The position numbers and the translations under genes were made by a program. Positions 12,420 through 33,400 of a DNA stretch of 64,000 nucleotides are shown here, piece after piece. Under the pieces are notes generated by a model, which was not told where the DNA came from, searched no databases, and saw nothing but the letters and a program-made list of their open reading frames with translations. The stretch is from NCBI GenBank assembly GCA_000934665.2, contig KZ538191.1, positions 1-64,000 of the forward strand, written 5' to 3'. Positions within the stretch are counted from its first letter, which is position 1. Each line of letters opens with the position of its first letter. The stretch comes from Catajapyx aquilonaris. Lineage: Eukaryota.

Positions 12420-15400
12420 GTAGGTCATCTATAATAAAAATGGCATCATTCGTCGAGGTGTCACTGAACCAAAATTGAGCGACGATACTCCTCAGAAGAC
12501 CTCGAGGTCCTTGATCATACCAAGTGCACACCGATGTGGAAAAAAATGCCTCCCCNCCCCCCCCCCCACCTTACCACCAGCCTTCTTTTGCGAAGTCCTC
12601 TGGCACCGGATTTCCCACCATTCTTCGGGCGCTGGGCAATCCTCCTGACCTTGTCGCGGAGGAGCGGAAGGCGCCTCCATCATTGTTCGCACCAGAAGCC
12701 CTTGACATGGGGGGGCTCCCATTGAGGTGCGCTGGGAATCTGCAGGGTTCTCACGCCTGCCCTCCCGATGCTGCTGCTGCAGTCTAATCTGTCATCGGGC
12801 GATATGATTCCCCCGCCTCTTTAACGGGACACCATCTATACATCAACATGGCCATAGGCGACTGACCCAGTTATCACGTCATCAGCTTAAGATGAGAGAG
12901 GGCTTTAAACCAACAATGGGCTGAGTTTTTGTGACTTGTTTTGTTTTGGGTTCCGGCGTGTGATTTCCGGGGTTGTAGTCACCTAGGTTGTGACGGTACA
13001 GCGCAATTATGTACAAAAGGTGAACAGTAATAGAGCCCGGTTGTAATTGGTCGTAAAGTAGTAACGGGCGCCGTTTCCGCTTGCCCGGAAGGGTCATCCT
13101 TGGATTAGAATAATTTCCTTGGCGGCCCTTCAGGGCATGCAACTGCTTATTGCTGTGTCAGGGACAGGAGATTGCGACCTGAGCTGTAAACAAGAGCCAA
13201 TGTTTTTAAAGCTTCGTCAACAGTTTTATCCCCTGACAACGACCGACATTAAAAAGACTGACCAAATCTTCCAGAACGACGGGAGCGGTACTGCGATGAC
13301 AGAGCTGAGTCCCGTTGGTCCAGGTCCCGGCGGGCAGCAACAGCAGCAAGCAACGACCCAGCAACAGCAGCAGCAACAACCACCTCCACCTCAGCAACAG
13401 CACGGTCTGAACGGCCACGTGTACGGAGAGAGCCCGACACCGACATCGACAGCCAATAACCCCGTGGACCTCTCCAGCCCTCGAGGATCCGAACTAGAAG
13501 AGGCATACCAGAGGGCCGAACGACGCGAGCACGCGTACCGGCATCACAACGGACTCAGCGTTGGCGTCGGGGGAACCCTGCAGGATCTCGGTGAGTTGTC
13601 GTCTCCAGCAGGTTGATTGCTGATTGATTCGATTCGCTTCCACTTTTTGCATGGTTGGGTGCCGATGCTACTTTTTTTGAGAGAGAGGGTGGGTTGAATT
13701 TTTTTTTGTGGGCGACAGGACTCGATGTCTCACACTTATGAAAAATTGACGGGAAGCGAATGCGGTATGTGTGTGACAGGAACCGATACGAAACGGTGCC
13801 ATTTAGAAAGCGTTTTTGGATGATTTTTTTGTGAAGGTAGTAGGATTGGAGGAAATGTAAGGTGATGAAGATAATGAAAGTCAAAAATTAGAGTTTGTCC
13901 GTCCCGCAGACCTGCAGGAACATTTAATTGAATTTAAGCTTTTTTGCGAATTTATGTTCATTTTGGCTACTTCGGCTTCATTGCGGAGATAATCGCAAAG
14001 GGTGGAATTTTCGTCCCACTGCTAGTTACTGCTGGCTTAGGAGTACCATAGTGTTGGTAGTGGACTAATGGTACTGCTAAGTTAGCAGTAACGAGCAGTG
14101 GGACGAAAATTCCTGCGCTCATCCTGCAGGCTAGGCGACCCATCGAACATCACTGCATCACATGTTGCGTGGCCCGCAGGATGAGCCTGTTAATTATTAT
14201 TTAAAAAAATGACTCTCCCATTGCCACAAAATGTTAATTAATTCGGACATTTGTAGCACTAGGCGGCATGTTTTTGAAGCGATCTTGTCACTCCAAACAA
14301 TCTCGTGTATATAATTAGAAAAACATCGCATAATCATCCAGCCCTCCTCTTGCGTGCTCCGTCATCGCCGTGTCAAGATGACATAATCTACAACCGTCTG
14401 CAACAATTGATGGGAGACGCATCACCGAGCGTGAACACCCCCTATTTCCCCCCAGCACCCAAAAAATCGGATGGGGGGGGGGGGGGTTACTAATCGACGA
14501 ATCTCGGCCGTGGTCACGCATGGTCTGCCCCCTCATTCGGAGAAGAGTAACCCCCTCTTCTCGACTATTGACGATGCTTGATGAAGCATATGTTCCACAA
14601 GGACCTTTGTTGGTGCGGATCCCCCGCATCTGAGCAGATGGGACGGATTTACGGATTATGTNTTTGCGAAGGGTCACGTGGCAACCAGACGGGCGTGATG
14701 CCGGTCGTGTGGCCTCGGTAGTTGGCCAGATCCGGTCCTGGTGGCGCTGGATGTTGGAATAAAGGGCACGTGGCCCGGAGGCGTGCGCCGGCCCCAACAT
14801 TGGGCCAGGGAGTATTTACAGGACGGCGTGCAGCGGCAGGTCCGGGGGGACACGTTCGATGTCTCCATTAGCGCCGTAATCCGAACGGGATTTGCGCATT
14901 GCTGGAGGTTGACCAGAATGTGGCGGAGATGTCAGATAATGTGGACACTGATTTTAGTCTGTTAGGCAGGGACCGGGTTTTTTTTATATACGGAAGGGAG
15001 TGTATCGTGTAATGGGATGGGTGATGTGCTGAACTGCGTTGTGGAATTTGGGTTTCTGATAAAGTCCGGTCCCACTATAGTATGACATTATGACAAAAAC
15101 ATGGGCTTCCAAGAGATGCGGGATTCACCTAAACGTACGCTCGGATTTAGTTTAACGTGCAATTTAAATGCATGATCAGAGATCAGTTGATACAACTGGC
15201 CTTTCGGATCATGGAGCGCAATATGCTGGCCACCACATATGCTCATTTTCAGTCCATAATAAACAATTGGTTTTCCGCTACATTTTTCAGACAGAGGAGG
15301 TCGGATGTTCTATAGAAGGGTGTTCCAAATTCGTGGGTCGTTTTATTTATAACTGATATCACCCGAAGCAGTTATTTTTGTGTAGCTTGTTGTGTCCCAT

Positions 15401-30400: not shown

Positions 30401-33400
30401 TGAATTATGCGGAGATTTGTTCCGGGAATTATTGCTGGAAAATGTATGGGAGCGTTTATGATTTTCGGAGAATTTGAACCATTTTGTATATAGACAGGGG
30501 CTGTTTTGCGCACTAAGCTGCTTATTATTAGTGGTGGTTATTGAAAGTATTAGCTACTAATATCAGTTATGAAGCATGCTAAATAATTTCAATCGTAAAT
30601 TCATTGCAATTCGCATCTTGGATGATTCAATTCGGCCTACCATCAGCAGCAAATACTTTTGATGTAACTGCATAATAAGCAGTTTATGGCAGAAATTGGA
30701 CTAGTCCTGATTAAATTAGAATATAAAATGTCAGATTTGTTAAATCATAATCTATGGCTAGGTTTGCAGTATTGTTGCGGTAACAGGCGTCCGGGTAAAA
30801 ACTTTCCAAATTTTTAGTTTGATGGAAAATCTCGAGACTGATCAGTCTACATGGCAATTAAGAAAATACCATTTCAATTTTTTTGTGCCATTAGCATTAG
30901 TATAATTGCGGCTCGTTTTTATCCAGAAATTATCAAGTGTGCGGTTTTTCATTTGGAAAGTTCATGTAAAACTGGCTTTAGGAAAATGACGTTATTAGCG
31001 CAACTAGCTGAAACTGGTTACGCAATATATGAAAATTATTGCATATAATCAGCGTACTCGACTTATATTAATTTTTTAAACTGTGTGAATGCGATGCGAA
31101 ATTTTCACCAATAATTTGGATGTCAGCTAAATTTGAACCATTAGAATTGGCCGAGAGTGTGCCTTTTCTTTTGCATAAAGCATCACTGGCGGACGACTCT
31201 GCGTCTGAGTCGTCCGCCAGTGGTGTTGCATGTAAAAGAAAAGGTCCGCCAGGCGGCGATACTTGTGGATGTCCATTAATTTCTACCACTACCCTGAGAG
31301 TGGCCATATATGTGAGGGATGTTGTACTACGTTGGTTGTCGACTTTGAAGCTAACAAGCCTATACTGTATATATCCAACGAGCAATAGTCGTGTCTAGGG
31401 ATTGGGTCAGAAGAACACCTGCACTGGCCCTTGCCCCCCCCCCCCCCCCCCNCCACCCACCCGAACCAAGCCTGGCCGCACGACGATGAGAAAGCGACCG
31501 AGTGTGAGTAGAAGTGGAGGAGAGAGTGGTAGGTAGGGGTGGGTGGGTGGGGTAAGGGAAAGAGCGATAAAGCAAAAGGCGGTGGGAGTGGTGGCACCTG
31601 CACTGACTAGGATTTGCATAGGAATCGGGGAGTCTCTCCGGGGAGACACCGGACTTAGTCTTATATAACTGCCGGATCAAGGGAGCTAAGACAATACGGC
31701 ACGACCGGGTAGCGTTTGACTAATAATAACGCTATAATGATATAACTGCGAATTAGCATAGAACAATACTCGCATTAAAAGCTGTGGGTGGTGGATGGGC
31801 ATGTGCTGCTATGGCCGGTTAGGACCGGGCAGTGACCATACGTAAATGAGTTCGTCACGCCACAGTTGGTGTGCGCCCATGCAGGCCCTAATTTCGTCTA
31901 ATGGTCATTTTCTGGGTATGGTTTTTGGTGGGGGCTGGGGGGGAGAGGGGGGGGGGCTGCGAAATTTGTGTGTGCATGGTCGGATGTACTGCTTGGCACG
32001 GGAGAGAGAGAGAGAGAGGAGGGGTAGGATTTGGTATGCTAATGCTTTTTGGGAACGAGGGATTTCTCCAGGGCGGTTTGGCCCCCCTCATGGGGGTTGC
32101 ATAACCGCTTCTCTACAAACCGTTTCCGTCTAAACGTCTCATCCGACGAAATTTTATGGTCGAAATTCAACGCAGAAGACGGAACGAACTATATGAAAAA
32201 TTTCGTCGGACGAAACGTAACGAACGAAACTAACTCGAAAACTTTCATGGACGAAACGTAACGAACGAAACGTAACGAACTCGAAAACTTTCATGGACGA
32301 AATTCGTCGGACGATTCGTTGGACGAAACGTAACGAACTTGAACATTTTCGTCGGACGAAATTTCTTTCGGCAAATTACATGTTTTATTCGTGGTATATA
32401 TTTAATTTAATGTTTTTTTTTAAAAAATTTCAGATCCGCACAGCGCGCCGATGATCCCTGGCTCGCTGACACCTCCGGACAAGGTGAACGGGGAGCACCA
32501 CTCGCACCATCCGCATCACACGCACTCGCACCCAGGGGCCGCCCCGCCGCTGCCCCACCACTTCGCCCTGCCTCCATCTGGACTCGGGGCCATGGGGCCG
32601 CCCATGCAAACACCACCCTCGCCCATACCCACTCCGTCGCCACCTGTGCCCATCGACAGGTTCGGGTAAGTCCAAAACTAACAGTCTATAACAATGTAAG
32701 GATGACAACATCAGTGGGCCAGTACATCATGTCTCATTCGCACAGCAAAGTCACCCCAACATGACAAATTACTAGCCTTGATTTACGGAAGTCGCCTTCG
32801 AAATCAATCCTGTCAATAATTAAACATTGCGTGTAAACAAAATCAATGCGTCCCATTTTTTTCTTCTTTTCTTCTGATGGGTCAATCGTTTCCTCCCATA
32901 AGGAATGACATTTTGTTGGGTCATAAACGCTCGCGTGTGACATGTGTTGTAATACAGCCAATCCAGGATTTCCGCTGGGTTGCCCATGTAGGATGGGAAT
33001 CTGTCCCACTTGCTAGAGGAAACAATTAAGAAGGCGACCCATTTTCTGGGAGGTGCCAAGCCCTCTGATTGGGCCTCATAAAGATCGATTTTGAAGGGGG
33101 GAAGAAGCCACGCCCCAGATTGCTCAGAAATTCCCGCCATATTTTTTAAGGGGGCACATTTGACTTTATATGAATCAGGTGCCCACGACTTGATTTGCAT
33201 AGCGACGGAGCAGAACTTCCTTGATCCTAACTTGCATAATCGACTCAGTTTCGCCGTTTGACTGGGTTGCGGGGGGGAAATAAGAGATGCCAAGGAGAAG
33301 GATTGGGTGGAAAGAGCAACATTAAGCTCATTGCGGATGCATGGCTATGCTGGGAGTTGGACCGGTGGCTTTAGTTTGAATTGTTGGGTTCAATTAATAT

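Follow-up and report, generated by a model that had tools for sequence, protein, structure and literature searches.

A His-rich candidate first exon within an intron of Su(H) in the dipluran Catajapyx aquilonaris may provide an N-terminus without the CtBP-docking motif

Introduction

Is the direct docking of a co-repressor a fixed property of a DNA-bound factor, or could it depend on the promoter from which that factor is transcribed? The question is raised by the Su(H)/CSL gene of the dipluran hexapod Catajapyx aquilonaris, which lies on the + strand of the 64,000-nucleotide stretch analyzed here (contig KZ538191.1, positions 1 to 64,000; "the window"). Many protostome Su(H) proteins dock the co-repressors CtBP and Groucho (Gro) directly (Miller et al. 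2019, eLife 8:e48115, PMC6777938). As reported there, pull-downs that combined Su(H) sequences of the centipede Strigamia with Drosophila co-repressors showed binding of CtBP to PVDLS and of Gro to GSLTPPDKV, the latter with the motif grafted onto a carrier protein. A preliminary description of the Catajapyx locus had given the two motifs these roles, in keeping with the published experiments, and by analogy the Catajapyx motifs themselves would be expected to bind CtBP and Gro. It had also proposed that promoter choice yields two N-termini, one with and one without the CtBP motif.

Our analysis leads us to hold, with moderate confidence, that a His-rich exon at 20998–21157 (here called exon 1b) is an alternative first exon transcribed from an internal promoter in a 16.4-kb intron of the gene, and that it gives a Su(H) protein free of the CtBP site.

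Exon structure and reading frames

The CtBP-recruitment motif PVDLS (P-phi-D-phi-S; 13461–13475) lies in an exon of 316 nt at 13275–13590 (+ strand, as are all the features described below), which is entered in phase 0 after AG 13273–74 and left in phase 1 at the donor TCG/gtgagt. Downstream are a 42-nt micro-exon, (D)...(Y), at 29957–29998 (phase 1 to phase 1), proposed as the common acceptor for both first exons, and an exon with a His-rich tract at 32434–32665 (phase 1 in, phase 2 out). The latter carries the Groucho-binding motif GSLTPPDKV at 32460–32486, C-terminal to the CtBP motif as in the protostome Su(H) proteins of Miller et al. The flanks of both motifs are identical to those in the Catajapyx row of Table 1 of that paper.

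Exon 1b, the candidate alternative first coding exon, comprises 53 codons plus one base (...FAAS) and also ends in phase 1. Its ATG at 20998 is the first in-frame ATG after an in-frame stop, TAA 20938–40, and the donor after 21157, CAG/gtaagg, fits the consensus and matches the donors of the accepted exons in quality. Positions 13590 and 21157 are both phase 1 and both end in G, and with the micro-exon, which begins AC..., either end gives Asp at the split codon. All four joins made in silico, from each first exon with the micro-exon included or skipped, were open through to the conserved core; PVDLS was present only in the form with the 13275 exon, and GSLTPPDKV was present in both forms. All coordinates and phases given in the preliminary description were confirmed, as was the ATG of exon 1b behind an in-frame stop.

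Three AG dinucleotides lie between TAA 20938–40 and ATG 20998, none of which is compatible with the phase-1 end at 13590. Exon 1b has its own start codon behind an in-frame stop, and no acceptor usable in its frame was found. One of the AGs, at 20954–55, is compatible with the phase-0 end of an upstream coding exon at 12419. The His-rich stretch could then be an internal exon starting at 20956, in frame with that exon and mutually exclusive with the PVDLS exon under a single promoter. However, the context of this AG (aaaaaaatcaaaaaaag) is A-rich and has no pyrimidine tract, and an RNA contig described below runs colinearly from 20811 through the acceptor site. We consider such an internal exon very improbable.

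RNA contigs and the putative leader

A sequencing run (X1) was the only one listed in a search with positions 20600–21200 (0.44 of the sampled words), and its contigs were mapped on 12900–32899. No RNA holder came up in that search, which is uninformative about expression in either direction. One contig of 333 nt (depth 3.7) aligned to 13405–13589, 29956–29998 and 32434–32508 in succession, each joint being bounded by GT..AG. The splices 13590>29957 and 29998>32434 are thereby proven, with the micro-exon included, and run X1 therefore derives from RNA. A second contig of 262 nt (depth 2.5) matched 20811–21072 colinearly, with no differences and no joint, spanning 187 nt before ATG 20998 and the first 75 nt of exon 1b. 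Exon 1b and a possible leader are thus present in X1 at a depth similar to that of the mRNA contig. The earlier impression that the His-rich exon looks like an alternative first exon is supported by its anatomy, by this contig with its 187 nt of upstream sequence, and by the coding-like codon usage described below.

The 262-nt contig begins at 20811 without a joint or loose end there, and contig ends cannot define the ends of an RNA. No X1 contig covered 21073–21157, and the rest of the intron was bare except for repeat pieces with loose ends; gaps in the contig cover were weighed neither against a splice from 21157 nor as proof of an exon at 20811–21072. The repeat pieces, at 13997–14111, 15610 and 16311, matched X1 contigs of depth 23–48 that ran into unrelated sequence, and are probably expressed repeats or transposon fragments.

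The putative 5' leader of the alternative transcript, 20811–20997, is covered by the 262-nt contig and has three short upstream open reading frames (uORFs), starting at ATG 20829 (16 codons), ATG 20906 (6 codons) and ATG 20990 (3 codons, with a TGA that overlaps the main ATG). Together with the C at –3 of ATG 20998, the uORFs would argue for weak or regulated translation. The exon lies within a 600-nt GC-rich island at 20600–21199, with a GC content of 0.54–0.63 against 0.34–0.43 in the flanks, a setting that appears promoter-like.

Several observations, in these data and in the tests that follow, weigh against exon 1b as a productive first exon. Run X1 was chosen using the exon 1b stretch itself, so that cover there is partly a matter of selection, and the kind of library is unrecorded. 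The exon 1b contig is unspliced, ends inside the exon at 21072, and could represent pre-mRNA or some other transcript. The joins 21157>29957 and 21157>32434 are inferred, the X1 contigs stopping 85 nt before the donor; the preliminary description had let either first exon splice to 29957 or 32434, and while the four joins are open in silico and the splices 13590>29957 and 29998>32434 were seen, none was seen from 21157. The leader from 20811 contains three ATGs upstream of the main ATG at 20998, which has C at –3.

Alternatively, 20811–21157 could be transcribed and yet not be a productive coding first exon. It might be unspliced pre-mRNA, a transcript from an intronic promoter or enhancer, or a variant that is non-coding or bound for nonsense-mediated decay, and the 53-codon open reading frame (ORF) would have arisen incidentally from an island rich in GC and His codons. 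A colinear, jointless contig that ends within the ORF suits this explanation, as do the three uORFs and the weak –3 base; on the other hand, the donor fits the consensus in exactly the phase needed. We consider it unlikely that the transcript is of this kind.

Codon usage

In a first codon test, usage was scored against intron trinucleotides, with training on every clearly coding segment of the window. The in-frame score of exon 1b was 23.0 bits, and the scores of its remaining + strand frames were 3.9 and 2.7; per codon, the 0.43 bits of the exon compare with 0.38–0.48 for the three real N-terminal exons. The in-frame score was reached by none of 3145 stop-free 53-codon windows of the Su(H) introns (both strands), and that of the 34 codons beyond the His tract by 4 of 7517 intron windows. 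Because the training had included a similar His-rich exon, a second, stricter test was run with all N-terminal exons kept out of training. Exon 1b then scored 13.8 bits, the best of the six frames (the other five ranged from –2.0 to 9.8), or 0.26 per codon against 0.20–0.33 for the held-out real exons. In this test, 6 of 874 stop-free windows with a GC content of at least 0.55 scored as high, which belongs among the points against the exon. The codon usage of exon 1b is coding-like, the signal being clear but not overwhelming.

A 23-nt stretch of exon 1b, 21034–21056, has a counterpart at 32499–32521 in the Gro-motif exon, with 21 of 23 bases alike and both copies encoding H-x-HHPHHT; the likeness may stem from a small internal duplication or from convergent His-codon repeats.

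The scores also bear on the possibility that exon 1b is not real at all, its ORF, ATG, donor and phase having come together by chance and its contig being a stray genomic or intronic signal. Such a coincidence is made easier to accept by the choice of a run with the stretch itself, from a library of unrecorded kind, by a contig depth of just 2.5, and by the lack of conservation by sequence in the searches that were run. It is harder to reconcile with the absence of any equal among the 3145 intron windows, with a reading frame that is the best of six, and with the concordance of phase, ATG, stop and donor; moreover, the Su(H) contig of X1 is spliced, so X1 is not plain genomic DNA. We judge a chance origin unlikely. 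For the transcribed but non-productive alternative, the codon test cuts both ways: six GC-matched windows reach the same score, and the His part may be a local copy of the stretch in the Gro-motif exon, but the signal is frame-specific and per codon as strong as in real N-terminal exons.

Sequence relatives and positional counterparts

Conservation of exon 1b in relatives, to which the preliminary description had looked, was not borne out: protein searches found no sequence homologue, only the positional counterparts described below, and they are limited by the small number of diplurans sequenced. A word-index search with the 53 residues returned 18 candidates, none of them at E ≤ 0.01 among longer proteins. 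A phmmer search with exon 1b against 1.84 billion cluster representatives, in which isoforms may be hidden by the clustering at 50%, gave a sole match, P0123; this was rejected as a homologue, being a translated tandem repeat. By eye, exon 1b seemed similar (TSL.EFS..L, PFL, YGP) to alternative N-termini in Artemia, Eurytemora and Amphibalanus; this likeness was rejected, as it did not hold up against shuffled sequences and short-query BLASTP gave trivial matches only. Artemia came closest, with 13 of 2000 shuffles for the tail and 83 of 2000 for the full exon, uncorrected for 12 comparisons, and the remaining comparisons gave 159–1711 of 2000. The lack of a homologue in the protein searches is also what a transcribed but non-productive stretch would lead one to expect.

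Positional counterparts, all of them computed models, were surveyed among 120 Su(H) proteins listed of 941 matches. Among the 120, CtBP and Gro-like motifs occurred together in 27, a CtBP motif alone in 25, a Gro-like motif without CtBP in 10 (some of them plainly truncated models), and neither in 58. Eurytemora carolleeae isoform X2 (P0012) has a different N-terminus up to ...PVVHT/DWSGDKYNYGRYG, while the PVDLS form of Eurytemora in Supplementary file 3 of PMC6777938 reads ...RYSAVD/DWSGDKYNYGRYG; the two diverge exactly at the point equivalent to the start of the micro-exon. The copepod-like PVDLS form P0019 (...HES/NWQNSEANKYGYP) and P0061 (MQNIHGAGHVVPHPVSVAASASS/DWQNSEANKYGYP), which are not necessarily from one species, show an N/D difference at the junction codon, as expected for a codon split in phase 1. 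In both pairs, the sequences part at the codon that precedes W in the micro-exon equivalent.

Other animals offer further parallels. The N-termini of Hyalella azteca isoform X3 (P0098), which lacks the CtBP motif, and of the Hyalella model in PMC6777938 diverge. In the mite Dermatophagoides farinae, isoforms X1 (P0116, with PMDLS) and X2 (P0115, with a His-rich MSLNHQQQQQQHHHHHH...) are identical downstream, and Octopus sinensis isoform X5 has a different N-terminus with neither motif. Artemia franciscana X3 (P0063) and Amphibalanus amphitrite X1 (P0014) are models free of the CtBP motif, and no PVDLS companion form of either was among the proteins compared. By analogy, another first exon in place of the exon with the CtBP motif may be a recurrent layout. 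That annotated arthropod isoforms analogous to the exon 1b form diverge at the same junction speaks against a merely non-productive transcript.

Among the mite Su(H) proteins, P0115, P0119 and P0120 have in common a His-rich N-terminus (an H-run and CLSNTSSIFFDYLFQSTECRHL...RHYFNCFA) without a CtBP motif. This CtBP-free N-terminus is conserved in a group that is reported to be without Hairless.

The micro-exon at 29957–29998 has counterparts in a segment of mayfly isoform X5 and in EWQTPEAKPYGYSRY of Machilis. Since the homologous segment distinguishes mayfly isoforms X5 and X4, the micro-exon is probably a cassette exon. The published Catajapyx model joins ...TLQDL directly to D-PHSAP, whereas the only spliced Su(H) contig includes the micro-exon.

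Other features of the gene and the window

The upstream coding exon (GQYNYGLGG...DLWGQP...PPYNSS...HHASAYYIQ) lies at 12201–12419, phase 0 to phase 0, with the acceptor tttcag/GGG and the donor CAG/gtaggt. It forms a portion of the long N-terminus and lies outside the stretch, 12900–32899, on which the RNA contigs were mapped. Visual comparison suggests that it is similar to N-terminal extensions in mayfly isoform X4 (P0006), Strigamia (P0008) and P0015. The first coding exon with the true first ATG was not located, a pattern search for an exon encoding MNEV giving no matches. Neither the exon at 12201–12419 nor the His-rich exon at 20998–21157 had a Pfam match.

Within the PVDLS exon, an ATG at 13296 (MTELS...) is the start of the published Catajapyx model and of mayfly isoform X5. 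Given the coding exon at 12201–12419 upstream of it, this published start is probably internal. The PVDLS exon matched mayfly N-termini by BLASTP among the fetched Su(H) proteins (E 1e-8); a word-index protein search with the same exon found no homologue, Gln-rich words crowding the results.

The exons of the CSL core (LAG1 DNA-binding domain, beta-trefoil and C-terminal domain) occupy 33421–35764, with approximate internal borders and a TGA stop at 35762–64. The whole core was covered by tblastn pieces at 33422–33916, 34020–34514, 35012–35188, 35233–35439 and 35516–35641, and PF09271 on 33422–33916 (E 5e-52) places the protein in the CSL family. The core had 941 Su(H)/RBPJ homologues at E ≤ 1e-20, nearly all of those listed having PF09271, PF09270 and PF20144. 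The top matches were from arthropods, with a mayfly at 87% identity followed by springtails, copepods, barnacles and a centipede.

Downstream of Su(H), 39207–41688 encodes a SAS-6 centriolar protein (PF16531, E 7e-28, followed by a coiled coil), and 43106–44463 a family-43 glycosyltransferase of the glucuronyltransferase type (PF03360, E 2e-41). There are 81 N in the window, with single N inside long C or G homopolymers (e.g., at 12556, 22518–22528, 29106 and 31452), which look like assembly uncertainties.

Discussion

In the reading that we favor, with exon 1b as an alternative first exon, the gene would have at least two transcription starts. A distal start would give a transcript with the exon at 12201–12419, the PVDLS exon, the micro-exon and the GSLTPPDKV exon, and the resulting long form would offer direct docking to both CtBP and Groucho. 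Transcription from another start within the 16.4-kb intron, located at 20811 or further upstream, would give a leader with three small uORFs and the 53-codon His-rich first coding exon, 20998–21157, which would be translated from the ATG at 20998. This exon would splice in phase 1 either to the micro-exon at 29957 or to 32434, so that the Su(H) protein made from it would lack PVDLS while retaining the Gro motif together with the complete core for DNA and Notch binding. The preliminary description had predicted such an isoform, and in silico the form from 20998 does lack PVDLS and contain GSLTPPDKV; the isoform itself is inferred, its junction not being among those seen. The outcome would be an isoform-specific loss of direct CtBP docking, which may tune repression quantitatively beside Hairless.

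The part played by Hairless was put differently before. The preliminary description had the switch act "without the Hairless adaptor", and this cannot stand: according to the main text of PMC6777938, some Pancrustacea keep the Su(H) motifs alongside Hairless in a 'hybrid state', and Diplura have both. The Hairless catalogue of that paper has no dipluran row, and the dipluran Hairless rests on the main text. The reported presence of Hairless weakens any functional 'switch' and is a further point against our proposal. CtBP could reach the short isoform indirectly via Hairless, and given Hairless in Diplura, the effect of the short isoform would therefore be one of degree and not on/off.

If the CtBP site is specific to one promoter, direct CtBP recruitment would be open to regulation by tissue or stage and would not be a fixed property of the protein. 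This would help to explain why the motifs persist beside Hairless, and would offer a simple route to their loss in most insects, in which the internal start alone would have come to be used. The published Catajapyx Su(H) model, from which the micro-exon and further N-terminal exons are absent, would also be corrected.

Parts of this picture are already known: the two motifs and their roles, alternative first exons that carry or drop a short docking motif, and predicted N-terminal isoforms free of the CtBP motif. The claim that the isoform logic had not been described therefore holds in part, in that no discussion of isoform-specific co-repressor docking in Su(H) was found in print, while predicted isoforms without the CtBP motif exist in public protein sets. 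In literature that was searched without most subscription journals, we found no paper that treats Su(H) isoforms carrying or lacking the CtBP motif. In that literature, GSLTPPDKV occurred only in PMC6777938 and its preprint; the word 'isoform' is absent (0 times) from the main text and seven supplementary files of PMC6777938, and the part available of Maier 2019 (PMC6337844) makes no mention of isoform-specific docking.

A wider proposal combines three elements: that the two-promoter layout is ancestral in arthropod Su(H), that the neopteran loss of the motifs came about through the internal form, and that FSLEDLA in exon 1b is a second Gro site. Distal CtBP-docking and intronic CtBP-free N-termini would then both join in phase 1 onto a 'DW..KY.Y.RY' micro-exon, and the motif-free neopteran Su(H) would descend from an internal-promoter form that became fixed once Hairless had taken over. 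Groucho motifs of the eh1 type follow the pattern FSIxxIL, to which FSLEDLA presumably bears a loose resemblance; if FSLEDLA is real, the short isoform would swap the CtBP site for a second Gro site. Taken jointly, the three elements make a proposal that we regard as decidedly unlikely.

The arrangement proposed for Catajapyx can be compared with several known ones. The vertebrate RBPJ gene has alternative first exons that give different N-termini, and it resembles the Catajapyx gene as a member of the CSL family in which several first exons exist and the N-terminus is variable and not conserved. Its N-termini are not known to carry CtBP or Gro docking motifs. A literature search on alternative first exons of vertebrate RBPJ turned up no paper.

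Predicted isoforms of other arthropods offer another comparison. In these, as is proposed for the exon 1b form, the part of the N-terminus that bears the CtBP motif gives way to an alternative segment, the remainder of the protein being unchanged; the mite D. farinae is similar also in that its alternative N-terminus is His-rich. They differ in being computed models whose alternative segments have no significant likeness to exon 1b, and the mite forms have no Gro motif, unlike the exon 1b form of Catajapyx.

The system described in PMC6777938 concerns this gene family and both co-repressor motifs, which in the window are flanked letter for letter as in its Catajapyx row, and the Catajapyx protein of its Supplementary file 3 corresponds to 13296–13590 joined to 32434 over the first ~400 residues, which were compared. 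It differs in that the model there has a single N-terminus, without the micro-exon, the exon at 12201–12419 or the His-rich exon. Finally, in the Hairless route of Drosophila and other Pancrustacea, too, CtBP and Gro are brought to DNA-bound Su(H), here indirectly, and Notch targets are repressed by default. In that route, however, Hairless is a separate adaptor, whereas the Su(H) protein of Catajapyx contains the docking sites, one of which would be confined to a single isoform.

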